In this document: piece by piece, positions 1 through 7,397 of the stretch | How the letters are laid out: every line of letters begins with the position of its first letter | Numbering within the stretch: the first letter of the stretch is position 1 | NCBI GenBank assembly: GCA_963734495.1 | Contig: CAVTHK010000018.1 | Location: 1 to 58,853 of the forward strand | DNA from: an uncultured Spirochaetota bacterium | GTDB lineage: Bacteria; Spirochaetota; Spirochaetia; SZUA-6; CAVTHK01 | Length of the DNA stretch: 58,853 bases | Direction: 5' to 3' | Notes under the pieces: generated by a model | What the model saw: the letters and a program-made list of their open reading frames with translations, nothing else | Told to the model about the DNA's origin: nothing | Database searches by the model: none | Made by a program: the position numbers and the translations under genes

Positions 1-2
1 AC

Positions 3-922
3 CACAGGATCAGGTTCACGCAGCCGGCTGCGCTCAACGACCCGATAGATTGCCATCCTTTGTTAACGTGCCGTGCGAGCTCGGGCAGCATACTCGGTAC
101 GTTGTACGTAGTGTACATATGCCGAGTGCCAATGAGTGGTACCACGTTCAGCTGATCGAATCCCGGGTGAACGAGTTCGGGATTCTGTCGCTGACAAAGA
201 ACCCGGTATCTTTCGACATGTGGAGCAAGTACGCAAATGGGCACAAGGGATGCCTCATCGAGTTACGCGCGGACTTCAATGCCCACAAGTCAATGTGTTC
301 GGAAGTCGGCGAGCCGTATCCCGTGGTTCCGGTAAGGTACGACGACACGTTCGAAATCGACCTGGCCGAATGCCGAGGTCCACGCGGTGGCCTTTTGTTG
401 CACGAATTTGAGACGCGGTTCTTCTACACAAAGGTGACCAGGTGGGCCGCTGAGAAGGAATTCCGTATGGTGCGTCCTCTCACGGATCTCGGCAAACAGT
501 CAGGAAGACTCCATGTCGGCACCTACCGAGACTTTGGCACGGTTTACCTCGGAGATTTGCCGCTCGATCTCATCAACACGGTTACATTCGGTGCCTATAT
601 GGCACGGGAAACCAAGCGCCAGATCATCCAGGCCTGCCACGGCACAAACATCCGGTTTCTTCAATGCATGTTGTTTCCGAAAGATAAGGACGAGAACGGT
701 CTCGCCCCCCAAGTCAGGCTTCTCGTTCTGGACGACCCCGCCCTGAGCAATCGCGTGCTCGAGATGCAGCCACAGCTGCTGCTTATGGGCAACGCAGACT
801 TGCTGCCGAAGCGAACAGTGCGGCTACGAACGACCTCAGAACTACCCTATTACGGCCTCAACCCTGAGCTCGTCGACGACCTTTTCCGTCGCCTCAAGAA
901 GCGACGGGGATGTAGAGAGTGA
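3..922 (+). CDS. DUF2971 domain protein (5' partial, apparent frameshift near 60); cassette 1
   Basis: Frame 3 gives IRFTQPAALNDP; ORF 50-922 has GILSLTKNP..MWSKYANGHKGCLIE and KVTRWAAEKEFRM, typical DUF2971 motifs. Confidence 0.8.
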   Translation, partial: QDQVHAAGCAQRPDRLPSFVNVPCELGQHTRYVVRSVHMPSANEWYHVQLIESRVNEFGILSLTKNPVSFDMWSKYANGHKGCLIELRADFNAHKSMCSEVGEPYPVVPVRYDDTFEIDLAECRGPRGGLLLHEFETRFFYTKVTRWAAEKEFRMVRPLTDLGKQSGRLHVGTYRDFGTVYLGDLPLDLINTVTFGAYMARETKRQIIQACHGTNIRFLQCMLFPKDKDENGLAPQVRLLVLDDPALSNRVLEMQPQLLLMGNADLLPKRTVRLRTTSELPYYGLNPELVDDLFRRLKKRRGCRE

Positions 923-954
923 AGCCGATTGGCCGAGGCTGGACTCGGGGTGGG

Positions 955-1069
955 TCATAACAAATCGTTGGAGTAGACGCCTTGAGGGCCGACTGGCACG
1001 GCCGGAGAGGCTACGATATACTGTGAGCTGGGGAGCTACTCGGCGGCGCTACTCAACTCTATGTTATGT
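955..1069 (+). repeat. attC site 1
   Basis: TCATAAC...GTTATGT; TTG[G]AGTAG[A]CGCC pairs with GGCGCTACTCAA leaving two extrahelical bases. Confidence 0.93.
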
Positions 1070-1117
1070 GCTAATGACTTTGTTAACTACATCATCACGT
1101 CTTCGTAGGGGCGGCTT

Positions 1118-2056
1118 ATGCGATACACGTTTAGACTACGCTTCAGACTCCCAGAAGTTCTTGCGATTGGTATGGATCTACCGAGGTGGAATATCACTCC
1201 GGATAGAGCAGTGCCCGAGGTATCGATCCGCTCCCCCGATGAGAAACCGATCAAAGACAGCAAGAACTTGGTAGCTCGTGGTGAAGGCTACGCCGCAGAA
1301 GCCGATGCCAAACAGGCCGGAGAATTTACCCGGAATGTGCTTACGTTGGCCTTCTCGCGGCAGAAGATAGGGGTAGACTTCGGGGACAGGGCTGCCAGGA
1401 GCGGATTCTTCCCTGCCGGCCTTCGAATGCTGGAAGAACAAACCGGCCGACGCGTGCTAAATGATGTCCATGGCTTGATGACATTCGAATCGGATCCACC
1501 TCCCGCCTTTTCCATCCCATCGGCTAGGGTCACAGTAGTTAAGAAGTTCGAGGATCTCCGCGCAGCAATAGTCCAAGCGCTGCAGTTTGCGCCGGCTGTC
1601 ACCGATCGTGATCGGCTCGCTTATGACCTTTTCAGTGCTTCGTTCTTTCAACCGGGACCAGACAGCAGGTTCCTTATGTTGATGATGGCGCTTGAGACTC
1701 TAATCGAACCGATGACGCGGTCTTCAGCGGCGGTTAGGCATGTTTCAAGGCTGATTTGTCTCACTCGCATAGTACGGGGCCTTACACAAGAGGATAGATC
1801 ATCGATCCGTTCGTCACTGGAATGGCTCAAGTCTGAATCGATAGGACAGGCGGGCAGAAGGCTTGTCTCCAGACTAGGGAGTATCGACTATCACGGAAAG
1901 ACGCCAAGGAAACTCTTTACCGAGTGTTACAACGTGCGCAGTAGCCTTGTGCACGGAGCCAGCCCCAGACCGACGACTTCGGAGGTGGGGAATCTATCAG
2001 CATCACTTGAGATAATGGTTGGAGACTTGCTATCTGGTCCTCTATTTGGATCTTGA
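1118..2056 (+). CDS. HEPN (ApeA-like) domain protein; cassette 2
   Basis: RFLMLMMALETL helix and C-terminal YNVRSSLVHG (Rx4H) motif. Confidence 0.7.
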   Translation: MRYTFRLRFRLPEVLAIGMDLPRWNITPDRAVPEVSIRSPDEKPIKDSKNLVARGEGYAAEADAKQAGEFTRNVLTLAFSRQKIGVDFGDRAARSGFFPAGLRMLEEQTGRRVLNDVHGLMTFESDPPPAFSIPSARVTVVKKFEDLRAAIVQALQFAPAVTDRDRLAYDLFSASFFQPGPDSRFLMLMMALETLIEPMTRSSAAVRHVSRLICLTRIVRGLTQEDRSSIRSSLEWLKSESIGQAGRRLVSRLGSIDYHGKTPRKLFTECYNVRSSLVHGASPRPTTSEVGNLSASLEIMVGDLLSGPLFGS

Positions 2057-2091
2057 TGACAAACCAGATATTTGTCGGTGCAACGGATAGC

Positions 2092-2206
2092 ACATAACAA
2101 ATCGTTGGAGTAGACGCCTGAAGGGCCGGCTGGCACGGTCGGGGAGGCCACTATATACTGTGAGCTGGGTAGCTACTCGGCGGCGCTACTCAACTCTATG
2201 TTAGAT
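2092..2206 (+). repeat. attC site 2
   Basis: ACATAAC...GTTAGAT; near-identical to attC1. Confidence 0.93.
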
Positions 2207-2292
2207 CGCCTCGGAATCGCCGCGAGCGGGTACCCTGCTTGTCAGGGGCGACTGTCCGTGGTCAGATAGGGGAGACTCGACTGGAGCGGTGC

Positions 2293-3555
2293 ATGAATAC
2301 AAAGTCGCTTCCCTTCACTGCCGATCGGCTCCGCGCGATAGCCGCGGAGTTTCCCACACCGTTTCACATCTACGACGAGCGCGGCATCCGCGCAACCGCC
2401 CGCAATCTGCTGCAGCGTTTTGCGTGGAATCCGGGCTTCAAGGAGTTCTTTGCCGTCAAAGCTACCCCGAACCCCTTCATCCTGAAGATCCTCAAGCAGG
2501 AAGGCTTCGGCATGGACTGCAGCTCCTTTCCCGAGCTCTTGCTCGCCGAAAGAGTTGGTGTTACGGGTTCCGGGATCATGTTCTCTTCCAACGATACCCC
2601 TGCGCCGGAGTACGCCAAAGCACGCGAACTCGGCGCCGCCATCAATCTCGACGATATCAGTCACATTGACTTCCTCGAGCGGAATTGCGGCCTTCCAGAC
2701 ACCATCTGTGTACGGTACAACCCCGGCAACTCGCGCGAGGGAAGCTTCGTCATGGGCCGGCCCGAGGAGGCTAAGTACGGGTTCACCCGGGAGCAGGTCT
2801 TCGACGGTCTCCGCATGTTGCGATCCAAAGGGGTCACCAAATTCGGACTGCATACGTTCATTGCCTCGAATGAGCTGAGTCCCCAGTACTTCGTTGACAC
2901 CGCCGAGATGATGTTTCAACTCGCTGTCGACGTACGTGAGCGGTTGGGGATACGGGTCGATTTCGTAAACACCAGCGGCGGGGTCGGAATACCCTACAGG
3001 CCGGATGACAAGGCAGTGGACTTGGGCTACGTCAGTGACGGCATACGCGATGCCTACGATCGACTGGTCAAGCCTGCCAAGCTGCACCCACTGTCACTCT
3101 TCATGGAACTTGGGCGAGCGATCACCGGGCCGCATGGATACCTTGTCGCACACGTGCTCCACATCAAGAACATCTACAAGACTCACGTCGGCCTTGACGC
3201 CTCTATGGCACATTTGATGCGGCCGGCGATCTACGGCGCCTACCATCACATAACGGTGGTCGGCAAGGAGGATCATCCTCTCGACCATACCTACGACGTC
3301 ACCGGCTCCCTTTGCGAGAGCAGGGACAAGTTCGCCGTCGACCGCGAGCTGCCTCGGGTGGATATCGGCGACCTGGTTGTCATCCACGACACCGGGGCGC
3401 ACGGCCACGCCATGGGCTTCAACTACAACGGCAAGCTTCGGTCCGCAGAGCTCCTGTTGCGCGAAGACGGCGATGTCGTTGAGATCCGCCGTGCCGAGAC
3501 GGTCGCCGATCATTTCGCGACTCTCGATTTCGCAAAGGTGGCCGACTTTTCCTGA
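2293..3555 (+). CDS. lysA: Diaminopimelate decarboxylase; cassette 3
   Basis: PTPFHIYDE, FFAVKATPN (PLP Lys), SGGVG, MELGR, GSLCESRD, HDTGAHGHAMGFNYNG. Confidence 0.93.
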   Translation: MNTKSLPFTADRLRAIAAEFPTPFHIYDERGIRATARNLLQRFAWNPGFKEFFAVKATPNPFILKILKQEGFGMDCSSFPELLLAERVGVTGSGIMFSSNDTPAPEYAKARELGAAINLDDISHIDFLERNCGLPDTICVRYNPGNSREGSFVMGRPEEAKYGFTREQVFDGLRMLRSKGVTKFGLHTFIASNELSPQYFVDTAEMMFQLAVDVRERLGIRVDFVNTSGGVGIPYRPDDKAVDLGYVSDGIRDAYDRLVKPAKLHPLSLFMELGRAITGPHGYLVAHVLHIKNIYKTHVGLDASMAHLMRPAIYGAYHHITVVGKEDHPLDHTYDVTGSLCESRDKFAVDRELPRVDIGDLVVIHDTGAHGHAMGFNYNGKLRSAELLLREDGDVVEIRRAETVADHFATLDFAKVADFS

Positions 3556-3558
3556 GGC

Positions 3559-3672
3559 GACTAACAAATCGTTGGAGCTGACGCCTTAGGCGCCGACTGG
3601 CGCGGTCGCCGAGGCTGGTATAGACTGGTTGCTTGAAAGCATGCGGCGGCGCAGCTCAACTCTATGTTAGGC
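3559..3672 (+). repeat. attC site 3
   Basis: GACTAAC...GTTAGGC; compensatory AGCTG/CAGCT stem versus AGTAG/CTACT in attC1-2. Confidence 0.93.
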
Positions 3673-3688
3673 CGAACTCTGTTGCTCG

Positions 3689-4765
3689 TCACCCGATCTT
3701 GACGATGCGTTTCTCCTCCGCCGACCGGTAGCAGGCCTCGACCAGCGCAACAGCACGCGCGCATTCGTCCGCAGGCGCGGGATTGTCTTTCCCTTCGGCG
3801 ATCAAGCCAAGGAACATGCCGATCGTACCGCCAGTCGTCTCATCCGACGTTATCTCCGCGCGCTTTCCGTCTGACATCAACTCGAAGCGCTTCCCAGTCC
3901 CGACAATTACTCCCGAGTCGCCGGCGATCGTGATCTGGGTGTTGCCCCAGATGTCTCCCGGATCGGTGTTTACGCCGTCGGTGTAGGCAAATGAGAACAG
4001 CACCCCATTCTCGAGCACCGCCTGGGCGCTGATTGCTCTTTCTGCCGGCAGGCCATCTTTTCTGAGGAAGCACGCGACCTCGCTCGCTCCCGAACCGCCA
4101 AACCAGAGCATCGCGTCCACCATATGAGTGTGCAAGTCAACAAACCACCCTCCACCCGCAACCCCTGGATCCGAGCGCCAGTTTCCTTCCTTTAGCCTAT
4201 CTTCCATAAAGGGCCGAAACTGACCGCCACGCTCGAGTGCGTTCTGCGCCCCCAACGGCTTGTTCGCGGGATCGTATATAAACACCAGGTTCGTGTGCGA
4301 TACCGTGCTGACTTGTCGAACCTTGCCGATTGTGCCTTCTGCGATGATCCTGTGCACCGCTCTCCAGATCGGATCGCACCGATATTTGTAACTCACCATC
4401 AGTTTCGCTTTGGCTGTCTTGGTAGCTGCGACCACTGCATTCGCATCGCGGCTGGACAGTGCCATTGGCTTTTCGACCAGCACATGCAGGTCCCGCTTGA
4501 GCGCCGCCATCGTCGGCTCCACGTGGAAGTCGTTCGGTGTGCACACAATCACTGCGTCCAGTCGTTCATTCTCCAGCATCGCCCGCCAGTCACCATAGGT
4601 GTTCCGTACGCCGGTGATCTTGGCTGCTTCAGCAAGCAACTCCTTGTTGCGCCGGCAAATGGCTGTAACAGCGGCACGACCATCTTCCTGGATACGTGTC
4701 CAGTGGCTCTGCAGCGCGAACACGCCGGCTCCGATGATCCCCACCCGGAGCTGATCTCTCGCCAT
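3689..4765 (-). CDS. Gfo/Idh/MocA family oxidoreductase; inverted cassette 4
   Basis: VGIIGAG, CTPNDFH, VLVEKPMA motifs; GGAGG RBS upstream of ATG 4765. Confidence 0.9.
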   Translation of the reverse strand: MARDQLRVGIIGAGVFALQSHWTRIQEDGRAAVTAICRRNKELLAEAAKITGVRNTYGDWRAMLENERLDAVIVCTPNDFHVEPTMAALKRDLHVLVEKPMALSSRDANAVVAATKTAKAKLMVSYKYRCDPIWRAVHRIIAEGTIGKVRQVSTVSHTNLVFIYDPANKPLGAQNALERGGQFRPFMEDRLKEGNWRSDPGVAGGGWFVDLHTHMVDAMLWFGGSGASEVACFLRKDGLPAERAISAQAVLENGVLFSFAYTDGVNTDPGDIWGNTQITIAGDSGVIVGTGKRFELMSDGKRAEITSDETTGGTIGMFLGLIAEGKDNPAPADECARAVALVEACYRSAEEKRIVKIG

Positions 4766-4861
4766 TTTCTTACCTCCCCCGCATTCCTTGCCGCCAAGTG
4801 TAGTGGAAGACACGAACAGCCCGCAAACGTCCGCCGCCGCCCTCTCAGGATATGGCAAGCC

Positions 4862-4969
4862 ATATAACAAATCGCTGTCGCCTTAACCGACGCTGGCACG
4901 GTCGGCTGGGCTGGTATAGACTGTGGACCCGGGATCTGCTCGGCGGCGCAGCTCAACTCTATGTTATGT
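4862..4969 (+). repeat. attC site 4 (L'' box deleted)
   Basis: ATATAAC AAATCG CTGTCGCC...CAGCTCAACTCTAT GTTATGT; lacks the 6-nt TTGGAG. Confidence 0.85.
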
Positions 4970-5115
4970 AGCACGCGCCCCTCGATACGCCCATAGTCCT
5001 TATGATGGGCTCGTCTTCACTCTTTTCTGGCGGCTTCGTACTTCACACGTTTAGGCGCACTCTCGCCAAGCACCGACGCGAGCATGGGCTTACTCGATGT
5101 CCCTGGATGCCCTCC

Positions 5116-5685
5116 TCATAGGAGGGTCTTTCCTACGGAGTAGGCATCTCCCAGAAGCGGACCGATGCCATGGTACTTGCGGTCTCCCGTACCGAATAGG
5201 ATGGGCTTGACTTTGGCCATGACTGGGTAGTTTCTTTCATTCAGAACTTCTTCGTCTGCCTTCACATCCACGATCTCCCCAATGAACTGGGTGTGCAGCC
5301 CCAGTTCGACCGTCTTGAGCAGCTTGCATTCGAGAATCAAAGGGAATTCCTTGATGTAGGGAGCATCTACCAGGTCGCTCTTCACGGCAGTAAGACCCGT
5401 CTTGGCGAACTTGTCGGCCTCTCGTCCCGAAGCGATACCTGCGTAGTCGGCTTCTTTCACGTGAGCCTCCGATGGAACACTCACGGTGTAGGCTTGACGC
5501 TCGAGAATGCACCCGTAGGTGTAGGTCGCCTTCCGAATCGATACGGTCAAGCAGGCCGGTTGCGAGCAGCAGATGCCTCCCCAAGCTACGGCCATCATAT
5601 TCGGCTTTCCCTCCCTGTCGTAGGAACCGACGATCCAGACCGGTGCAGCTAGAGCCAGTGTTTTCGCTCCGATGGACTTTTTCAT
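5116..5685 (-). CDS. Flavin reductase family (flavoredoxin-like) protein; inverted cassette 5
   Basis: PVWIVGSYD, NMMAVAWGG, SGREADKF, APYIKEFPLILEC, HTQFIGEI; GAGGAG RBS. Confidence 0.9.
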   Translation of the reverse strand: MKKSIGAKTLALAAPVWIVGSYDREGKPNMMAVAWGGICCSQPACLTVSIRKATYTYGCILERQAYTVSVPSEAHVKEADYAGIASGREADKFAKTGLTAVKSDLVDAPYIKEFPLILECKLLKTVELGLHTQFIGEIVDVKADEEVLNERNYPVMAKVKPILFGTGDRKYHGIGPLLGDAYSVGKTLL

Positions 5686-5993
5686 GCGTATCTCCTCTAT
5701 CGCTTTAGGTGCTTCTATCCATGGTTTCTCAGCTGCCTTTCCGATCGCGACTACGTCATTCCTTCGAGTCTTCCCACGGCAGCCCACGCACTCTACCACA
5801 AGAGAGCTGAATCCCGGACAAGGATCTCCTCAATAGAGCAAAGCCTACGTACGCGGGGCCGAAAGGCTGACGCAAGGGCCTGGAAACGGCCGCCGATTGG
5901 GACGGCTGGGCATGCCCCACTTGGCACTTCTCCTCGCGCGTGTAGACCCGTGTCCTCCTTCTGTCGCGGTGGCGCTGCCTCAATTGCCGGTGC

Positions 5994-6099
5994 GCATAAC
6001 AAATCGCTGACGCCTTAACCTTCGCTGGCGCGGTCGGCGGAGCTGGTATAGACTGTGGGCGGGAGCTACTCGGCGGCGCTACTCAACTCTATGTTGGAT
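5994..6099 (+). repeat. attC site 5 (L'' box deleted)
   Basis: GCATAAC AAATCG CTGACGCC...CTACTCAACTCTAT GTTGGAT. Confidence 0.85.
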
Positions 6100-6187
6100 T
6101 GCCCGGAAGCGGTTAAGAAGGCGATTCAAACGCCTACCCCGCAGGCTGCTTGACAGAGTCGACCGTGCTGCGACGAGGCTATCGCAG

Positions 6188-7258
6188 ATGTCCAATGACC
6201 GCTTGCCCATCGTAGACGCACACCTCGACCTCGCTGAGAACGTCACACTCTTTGGCTGCGACCTCCTTGTTACCGTCGCCGAGAGGCGCATACGCGAGAG
6301 ATCTCGGATTGCCCAAGCCACTGTGTCGCTCCCTGATCTGGAAAGAGGTGGTATCGCGGTGGTGTTCGCCACCGTCACCGCGGGCTTCCTCGAGGCCGAT
6401 GTCGGTGCCAACTTCGAGCCGCGGTCAGCTATCTACCACTCCCCGGAAGAGGCCGAGGCTCAGGCGCTGAAACAGATCGCCTTGTACGAGCAGTGGGCCA
6501 GGCAGGGGCGGATCCGGTTGCTCAAGTCCGTGCGTGACTTGCAGGATCATCTGCGGCTGTGGGTATCGGACGGCAAGCCCGGTGTCGTGATGCTGATGGA
6601 GGGTGCCGACCCGATTGTCGAGGTCGGTGACCTCTCGGCGTGGTGGCGGCGCGGCATCAGGGTCATTGGCCTAACCTTTGGGGACACTCGGTATGGTCAT
6701 GGCGTGCGCGGAGGCAGCCGCCACTTGAGGCGAGGAGGTCTGACGGAACAAGGTCTGAGGCTGCTTGAAGCCATGGGAGAGCGCGGCTTCGCTTGGGACA
6801 TCTCGCACCTGACCGAAGATGGAATCTGGCAGGGCTTGGAGATCAAGTTCCCACATGTCTGCGCTTCCCACGCAAATGCTCAAGCCCTGGTTCCTACCGA
6901 TCGGCACCTCAGCGATGCGGTTATTCGGGCTGTTGGCAACCAGGGTGGTGTGATAGGCCTTGTCCTGTACAACGGCTTTCTTGAACCCCGTTGGAAAGAC
7001 GACAAGTCCACGGTGGTTACGCTCAAGGAACATCTCGCGAAACACGCTCAACACGTGGCTGACCTGGTGGGGTGGGACAGTGTCGGCATCGGGTCCGACC
7101 TGGACGGCGGCTTTGGCGCTGACCAAGCGCCCGCCGAACTCGACACTGTGGCCGATTTGCACATGGTAGGCAGCGTGGTGCCGCCAACTGCTCGTGCGAG
7201 GGTGCTTGGTGCCAACTGGATTGGGTTCCTCGGCCGTTCGCTGCCGAAGACGGACTAG
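6188..7258 (+). CDS. Membrane dipeptidase (peptidase M19)
   Basis: VDAHLD, LMEGADP, DISHL, SHAN, GIGSDLDGG. Confidence 0.9.
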   Translation: MSNDRLPIVDAHLDLAENVTLFGCDLLVTVAERRIRERSRIAQATVSLPDLERGGIAVVFATVTAGFLEADVGANFEPRSAIYHSPEEAEAQALKQIALYEQWARQGRIRLLKSVRDLQDHLRLWVSDGKPGVVMLMEGADPIVEVGDLSAWWRRGIRVIGLTFGDTRYGHGVRGGSRHLRRGGLTEQGLRLLEAMGERGFAWDISHLTEDGIWQGLEIKFPHVCASHANAQALVPTDRHLSDAVIRAVGNQGGVIGLVLYNGFLEPRWKDDKSTVVTLKEHLAKHAQHVADLVGWDSVGIGSDLDGGFGADQAPAELDTVADLHMVGSVVPPTARARVLGANWIGFLGRSLPKTD

Positions 7259-7397
7259 GCAAACGGCGCGGCGGCTGAGACCCGGCCGTCGCGCGGTTCG
7301 TTCGGCCAGAGGTCAACGCAGCTATACTTTGCTGGAAGCGCACATCCGCAACGGCCGGTGGAGCACAGGGTGGCTCCGCGCGGGAGAGATTCGTGCG

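Follow-up and report, generated by a model that had tools for sequence, protein, structure and literature searches.

Does every attC recombination site of a cassette array carry a promoter of its own? The question is raised by the array at the start of contig CAVTHK010000018.1 from an uncultured Spirochaetota bacterium (assembly GCA_963734495.1), which we analyzed as a single window of 58,853 bases. A first-pass annotation of this DNA had pointed to five attC-like repeats, each with the sigma-70-like motif CTGGCR-N18-TAKACT in its central loop, and had proposed that each repeat serves both as recombination site and as promoter of the next cassette. If true, a promoter in every attC would overturn the textbook picture of distal cassettes that are silent until shuffled next to the Pc promoter. 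Our analysis identifies the repeats as the attC sites of a chromosomal integron in a spirochaete and makes a promoter in every attC unlikely here; the two hexamers of the motif are the cores of wider conserved islands, which may well be an inherited signature of this attC family, preserved by some constraint on the site itself.

An exact pattern search for CTGGCR-N18-TAKACT returned five matches in the whole window, all on the + strand (993–1022, 2130–2159, 3597–3626, 4893–4922 and 6025–6054), exactly where the motif had been reported, and all five are confined to five co-oriented repeats of about 105–115 nucleotides (nt). While a shuffled window would be expected to hold 0.01 matches, this figure is no measure of independent recurrence, because the five sites are copies of one repeat. 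The repeats open with ...TAACAAATCG and close with ...CTCAACTCTATGTT plus four bases; all are on the + strand, which is the top strand of the sites:

955–1069, + strand: attC 1, from the AAC core of R'' (ATAAC at 957–961) to R' (GTTATGT at 1063–1069); canonical attC fold of the bottom strand, z = −3.65
2092–2206, + strand: attC 2, with R' GTTAGAT at 2200–2206; bottom-strand fold, z = −2.33
3559–3672, + strand: attC 3, with R' GTTAGGC at 3666–3672; bottom-strand fold, z = −3.27
4862–4969, + strand: attC 4, its L'' arm shortened by a 6-nt deletion (from the alignment); no attC fold, z = −0.38
5994–6099, + strand: attC 5, the last in the array, with the same 6-nt L'' deletion; fold z = +0.18

The R''/R' consensus is given as RYYYAAC / GTTRRRY in the text of PMC5027507, and both boxes were found in all five repeats: each starts with ...TAAC, the closing boxes GTTAGAT, GTTAGGC and GTTGGAT are exact matches to GTTRRRY, and GTTATGT, which occurs twice, is one base off. 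In attC 1–3, the folded bottom strand pairs its R box, leaves the spacer open and forms an L-box stem from whose '' arm, the 3′ arm of that strand, two single bases bulge out (z −2.3 to −3.7). L''/L' pairing, spacer and extrahelical bases were all present in these three sites and were not recovered in attC 4 and 5, where z is about 0. The L''/L' pair of attC 3 (GGAGCTG/CAGCTC) is compensatory to that of attC 1–2 (GGAGTAG/CTACTC), and among 29 copies from the genome the L-box helix was 97% paired, with compensatory changes such as TA/CG in four of its six pairs. The copies stand in co-oriented tandem, spaced 1.0–1.35 kb apart in the window, and the open reading frames (ORFs) of the genome's other arrays are mostly forward. 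The boxes, the bottom-strand folds of attC 1–3, the cassette-spaced arrays and the integrases present in the genome bear out the identification of the repeats as attC sites, here of a sedentary chromosomal integron in a spirochaete.

With a profile built from the five window copies, we identified 30 confident attC copies in the 5.38-Mb assembly: five on the window's contig, where nhmmer found no further copy beyond them, 11 on contig C1, two on C11, seven on C9 (in two clusters) and five on C13. Two genes score above the TIGR02249 integron-integrase cut-off (425 and 386 bits), and an attC array runs away from each of them to the contig start, on C1 and C11. The nearest public integrases, at 59–67% identity, belong to uncultured Spirochaetaceae, Spirochaetales and Spirochaetia, with one labelled only 'uncultured bacterium'. 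No integron integrase lies inside the window, where the array extends from the contig start to position 6099; from the contig breaks, we infer that one of the two integrase-linked arrays has its far end here. Overall, the genome of this one uncultured spirochaete yields two integron integrases, five attC clusters and 30 attC copies.

Within the loop of about 60 nt, conservation proved to be uneven. Many columns carry drift, several of them with three or four different bases, and between these mostly drifted columns the conserved islands follow each other in the order CG and then CTGGCACGG; GC; TA-n-ACTG-t-G; GG; and CGG. Two of the islands contain the proposed promoter hexamers, with these positions in attC 1:

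993–1001, + strand: loop island 1 (CTGGCACGG), whose first six bases are the proposed '−35'
1017–1026, + strand: loop island 2 (TAnACTGtG), whose first six bases are the proposed '−10'

The homologues of island 1 start at 2130, 3597, 4893 and 6025, and those of island 2 at 2154, 3621, 4917 and 6049. By per-column counts over the 30 copies, all nine columns of island 1 are 83–100% conserved, and island 2 has T in 29/30, A in 29/30, a free third position (G in 12, C in 9, T in 8 and A in 1), A in 27/30, C in 27/30, T in 29/30, G in 28/30, T in 21/30 and G in 24/30. Outside the window (25 copies), the hexamer columns, 12 in all, averaged 1.47 bits and the 49 other loop columns 0.88 bits (one-sided Mann-Whitney p = 0.001). 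Taken at face value, the conservation test proposed in the first-pass annotation therefore came out in favor of a promoter, and its refuting outcome, uniform conservation, did not arise. However, the hexamers as conserved units were not borne out, because the islands are 9–10 nt wide and window pairs shifted by 1–3 columns score as high as the proposed hexamer pair. The CGG directly 3′ of the '−35' is conserved in 97%, 93% and 100% of copies, among the best columns of the loop, and the C at position 5 of the '−10' (90%) and the G that follows the hexamer (93%) are just as well kept; a promoter needs none of these bases. When only columns invariant in the five window copies were compared, the 10 hexamer columns, at 1.56 bits, were no better kept than the 18 others, at 1.39 bits (p = 0.22). 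The description of the spacer as drifting between copies held only in part, since 8 of its 18 positions are invariant across the five window copies.

Comparison with related sites suggested that parts of the islands are older than the loop in which we found them. A DNA-similarity search of 61 genomes (the source genome, a second member of its genus and 59 further genomes from its order) gave attC matches in 12 of them, mostly from one sister family, and we collected 87 full-length attCs from the arrays of related genomes. These have the arms and a length of about 115 nt in common, with a loop family specific to each genome; one genome, for instance, has CTGGAACGG...GGCAATTCC..., another CTGGATAGACCC...TCCTAATCGTC.... 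Sister loop families (CTGGAA... and CTGGAT...) have no TA, and TAnACT was absent from the homologous place in all 87 related attCs except two copies, CCTAGACTG and CCTGGACTG. Scanning metagenomes with the 3′ arm alone extended the superfamily to at least 120 contigs, and 80 loci gave 98 distinct attCs, 94 of them with a recognisable 5′ arm; these fall into a few families, so counts among them are not independent events. The near-identical arms, common in metagenome contigs, occur with at least six loop families, each with conserved mid-loop stretches particular to it. Among the 94 metagenomic attCs, CTGG starts 8–15 nt into the loop in 31, compared with 2–4 in most other 8-nt bins, and has a second peak (23) near the 3′ end of the loop, while CTGTGG starts 32–39 nt into the loop in 31 and almost nowhere else. 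The source genome has CTGG about 11 nt and CTGTG about 39 nt past the 5′ stem, the same positions as the metagenomic peaks. The −10-like portion is scarce in these sister loop families, with CTGGnn-N18-TAnnnT in 3/94 and TAnACTG in 2/94, which counts against a promoter. The source genome's own loop type was found elsewhere in three copies, one of which keeps TATAGACTG; the other two read CATGGAATG or CATGGAGTG (CATGGArTG) and hence have no A2. An exact 5′-arm pattern located two loci in genome contigs, which were set aside as they matched the attC profile only partially and had different loops. The long loops of this superfamily are thus not free to vary, with short islands at fixed positions across otherwise unrelated loop families.

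For the fit to promoters of the host, we used a weight matrix trained on those 25 of 55 transfer RNA (tRNA) genes with a clear promoter, its −10 box ending 7–25 nt before the mature 5′ end. The consensus of these 25 promoters is TTGACA-N17/18-TAnnnT, with T1 and A4 of the −35 box invariant in 25/25 and TTGAC kept in 24/25; the interior of the −10 box is loose and includes TATACT and TAGACT, so that the second hexamer of the attC motif occurs as a real host −10 box, in support of a promoter. The training promoters score 16.8–25.6 bits and the attC motif 3.9–11.2 bits, which leaves it 6–20 bits under known host promoters. By variant, CTGGCA/TATACT reaches 11.15 bits, CTGGCA with TAGACT or TACACT 9.13 bits and CTGGCG/TAGACT 5.11 bits, so that within the window attC 1 and 2 score 11.15 bits, attC 4 scores 9.13 bits and attC 3 and 5 score 5.11 bits; the best top-strand match of each of the 30 attC copies scores 3.9–12.6 bits, and 3.1% of random 125-nt genome windows reach 9.13 bits and 1.8% reach 11.15. 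A simple sigma-70 consensus scan accepted only attC 1 and 2 (CTGGCA/TATACT, 9/12), with the other three of the five window copies below threshold. Among the metagenomic attCs, scores of at least 9.13 bits were found in 8% of top strands and 4% of bottom strands. The downstream hexamer does have the form TAnnnT at the spacing of a −10 box (16–18 nt), with T1, A2 and T6 each in 29/30 copies and the third position free. The '−35', in contrast, does not resemble TTGACA (CTGGCA agrees at 4/6 positions and CTGGCG at 3/6), and its C1 is fixed in 29/30 and its G4 in 27/30 copies, where host tRNA promoters have T and A in 25/25. This runs counter to selection for promoter strength, which would be expected to remove both bases.

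Canonical promoter-like sites are present elsewhere in the arrays. Several cassettes on C1, in both C9 clusters and on C13 contain TTGACA-N17/18-TAnnnT sites of 17–23.5 bits that point along the array, and the same hexamer pair, TTGACA with TACATT, recurs on C1, C9 and C13 (spacers of 18, 18 and 17 nt, respectively). The stretch from each integrase to its first attC also contains a candidate Pc promoter, of 17.7 bits on C11 and 15.4 bits on C1. The host-matrix scan of positions 1–7300 of the window found no site of 14 bits or more. Since cassettes already bear canonical sites, the attC motif would not be the driver of those cassettes, although a weak contribution from it is still compatible with the data.

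Because CTGG and CTGTG recur at the same positions in loop families that have no −10-like TA, we read the two hexamers, with moderate confidence and from sequence comparison, as cores of wider islands that represent a signature inherited within this attC family and preserved by some constraint acting on the site itself. The attC sites would then work as usual, by analogy with their family: the bottom strand would fold, R''/R' and L''/L' would pair, and the integrase would act on the boxes. The constraint on the islands could concern loop shape, strand choice or a binding partner, and parts of both islands would predate this lineage's loop type. The sigma-70 likeness would be mostly incidental, causing at most weak background transcription, and those cassettes that have a canonical promoter-like site contain it within their own sequence.

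Several observations weigh against the islands being such a signature. The TA is kept in 29/30 copies although it lies outside the older CTGTGG motif, which an inherited signature leaves unexplained and a −10 box would explain, and counts such as this one come from 30 related copies and are not independent. The third position of the '−10' avoids A (1/30), like the host −10 boxes (0/25). The spacer measures 18 nt in 25 of the 30 copies, a normal spacing in this host, with 19 nt in three, 17 nt in one and 15 nt in one. Best scores of 9–12 bits were found in 8.8% of 1,129 upstream intergenic stretches and in 1.7% of coding windows, a 5.2-fold enrichment upstream of genes, part of which AT content may explain; it makes a weak promoter plausible. 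Nor did loop structure account for the islands: 62% of 207 attCs can form a stem of 4 bp or more where CTGG stands, barely above the 50% of shuffles, and a conserved hairpin presenting TGGCA/CTGG in its loop, only 70% paired in the genome and with little covariation, was rejected as too weak.

The alternative that each attC is also a weak outward sigma-70 promoter (CTGGCA-N18-TAnACT), giving basal transcription of the next cassette at any array position and antisense RNA into inverted cassettes, seems unlikely from these comparisons. It came through its own conservation test and drew support from the form and spacing of the second hexamer and from the upstream enrichment of similar scores; five results told against it, namely islands broader than the hexamers, bases fixed against the consensus, scores that are low, an older origin of CTGG and CTGTG, and canonical promoters borne by cassettes. 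Within the window, the two best copies (11.15 bits) stand before forward cassettes and weaker ones before inverted cassettes or the array end, an anecdotal pattern at n = 5; across all arrays, no clear pattern by eye linked motif quality to the orientation of the next cassette. The literature offers partial precedents. In Vibrio sp. DAT722, a sigma-70-type promoter bridges an attC and drives the next cassette, with a transcript rise of about 40-fold across the promoter (Michael and Labbate 2010, PMC2945992), and the text of PMC11014356 places some transcription starts 'even within the attC' of one cassette, discussing them as possibly spurious. The DAT722 promoter, as described in PMC2945992, is a bridging site at one junction of one array, whereas the motif here lies within the loop of all attCs. 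Across the main texts of the literature searched, a promoter that all attCs of one array have in common is nowhere described.

A related proposal, which we hold to be slightly less probable, is that this lineage co-opted the attC loop by fixing TA beside the older CTGTGG and 18 nt after the older CTGG, which would turn every attC into a weak outward promoter. Were it true, the whole array including its far end would be transcribed at a low level whatever the order of its cassettes, with antisense RNA into the inverted ones.

More doubtful again is a reading in which the islands are recognised by a sequence-specific partner, either on the G-rich top strand or on its transcript, such as a host or integron protein or an RNA element in read-through transcription. 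The conserved blocks do lie where little pairing is conserved. With RNAalifold, the loops of 29 copies remained almost unstructured (−0.92 kcal/mol), and the earlier statement that the loop segment is mostly not self-complementary agrees with DNA folds, in which the loop is largely unpaired in centroid structures. The top strand of the loop is G-rich in 7/8 loop families (GC skew +0.09 to +0.43), and in the same seven, when RNA parameters are used, its fold is better than that of the bottom strand; the text of PMC5027507 describes the opposite skew for the attC sites of mobile integrons. A pairing of island 1 with island 2 (CACGG with CTGTG) would give 5 bp, on the top strand only by way of a G-T pair, yet by sequence reading it is absent from other loop families, and it is beyond a covariation test because its columns are near-invariant; we rejected it, together with a second hairpin around island 2 (61% paired). 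No Rfam family matches the window at gathering score. Both integrases of the genome have an N-terminal extension of about 85–120 aa before the SAM-like domain, with no Pfam match (L008:2118–2483 and L007:16612–17064). As a cause of the loop islands this extension was too unspecific: a similar stretch is encoded just upstream in 51/80 related integrase loci from many phyla, and the arm motif was found in the short flanks of only 1/80 loci, so it is widespread and not tied to this attC type.

Sedentary chromosomal integrons typically have attC sites that are much alike throughout a species. That the islands are unconstrained leftovers of recent common ancestry or gene conversion, with mutations uneven by chance, would suit this homogeneity and the almost uniformly conserved loop family of one related genome (G016A), yet it is improbable given columns outside the islands that average only 0.88 bits in the 25 non-window copies beside island columns 83–100% identical, and given CTGG and CTGTGG at fixed positions in otherwise dissimilar loop families.

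Two further promoter models were discarded. A sigma-54 promoter has GG at −24 and GC at −12 in fixed spacing (TGGCAC-N5-TTGC); island 1 has TGGCACG, like a −24 box, and no TTGC follows at the required distance, the nearest conserved GC being three bases too far. PeSL (promoter-early stem-loop) mobile regulatory cassettes of T4-type phages have repeats between accessory genes that are both recombination substrates and promoters (Arbiol et al. 2010, PMC2839356). That text describes a strong sigma-70-like promoter with a terminator stem-loop and recombination by homology, in contrast to the weak motif here, where integrase-mediated recombination is expected. A promoter/terminator module of this type was rejected as the motif is weak and no attC contains a terminator-like site.

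Among known integrons, the closest parallel is with sedentary integrons such as that of Vibrio cholerae. Vibrio cholerae repeats (VCRs) are homogeneous within a genome. In the accounts available of VCRs and other sedentary integron attCs, the likeness to the sites described here lies in long sites (about 110–128 nt) that are alike within a genome, single-gene cassettes and large chromosomal arrays. In contrast to VCRs, the present sites come from an uncultured spirochaete that has two integrases as well as several clusters lacking one, and their loop shows little self-complementarity, has a G-rich top strand and is conserved only in islands instead of throughout. The text of PMC5027507 states that the long VCR-type loop 'can form complex branched structures', and VCRs are also mentioned in PMC11014356. 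For Vibrionaceae superintegrons, cassette promoters are described either in the 5′ region of a cassette or in cassettes without a gene (review PMC8876359; Blanco et al. 2024, PMC11014356). As those texts present them, such in-array promoters free cassettes from the position effect of Pc, as a promoter in every attC would here, but they vary from cassette to cassette, unlike the motif common to all attCs here. Treponema is called the only spirochaete clade with integrons in the text of PMC3607928; its chromosomal integrons are likewise from spirochaetes, whereas the integrases nearest to ours are those of uncultured Spirochaetaceae, Spirochaetales and Spirochaetia. The attC loop is described in PMC5027507 as variable, influencing strand choice and not bound by the integrase. 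As the loop is usually treated as variable, the islands offer a concrete target for a role of the loop in recombination, strand choice or expression.

The genes of the window's array match the first-pass description of three forward and two inverted cassette ORFs, followed by a gene in array direction:

2–922, + strand: cassette ORF truncated at the contig start; no Pfam family
1118–2056, + strand: cassette ORF of 312 aa; no Pfam family
2293–3555, + strand: cassette ORF, pyridoxal phosphate (PLP)-dependent Orn/DAP/Arg decarboxylase-like (PF02784, 1e-25; PF00278, 1e-21)
3689–4765, − strand: inverted cassette ORF, GFO/IDH/MocA oxidoreductase (PF01408, 1.5e-27)
5116–5685, − strand: inverted cassette ORF, flavin reductase-like (PF01613, 4e-31)
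6188–7258, in array direction: M19 membrane dipeptidase gene, starting 89 nt past the last attC

The M19 dipeptidase gene may mark where the chromosomal genes begin, or it may belong to a cassette whose attC has been lost. The 6-nt L'' loss of attC 4 and attC 5 was also seen in one C13 copy (about 213995–214102; L011:3996–4103). Such sites, of which the two in the window do not fold as attC, may no longer be able to recombine, and the two inverted cassettes would then be locked where they are. No integrase above the cut-off lies near three of the attC clusters, namely C9 at 23.2–26.7 kb, C9 at 59.9–64.4 kb and C13 at 211.9–217.0 kb. The C9 copy at about 64.3 kb has decayed arms and still contains CTGGAA-N18-TATAGACT.

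Two other features of the arrays emerged. A 348-aa IS110-family transposase (PF01548, PF02371) is present in five copies, inverted in the arrays, four on C1 (including L007 12910–13956) and one on C9, and every copy lies just before an attC with R'' AATAAGTATCAAATCG instead of CATAACAAATCG. According to the text of PMC11187229, IS1111 relatives target one end of attC sites, and the copies in these arrays look like such attC-targeting relatives. In 25 of the 87 related attCs (L042–L057), the best promoter-like match was TTGATG or TTGATA, a 19-nt spacer and TATGTT, with the R' box as '−10'; as a promoter this match is doubtful, given its 19-nt spacer.

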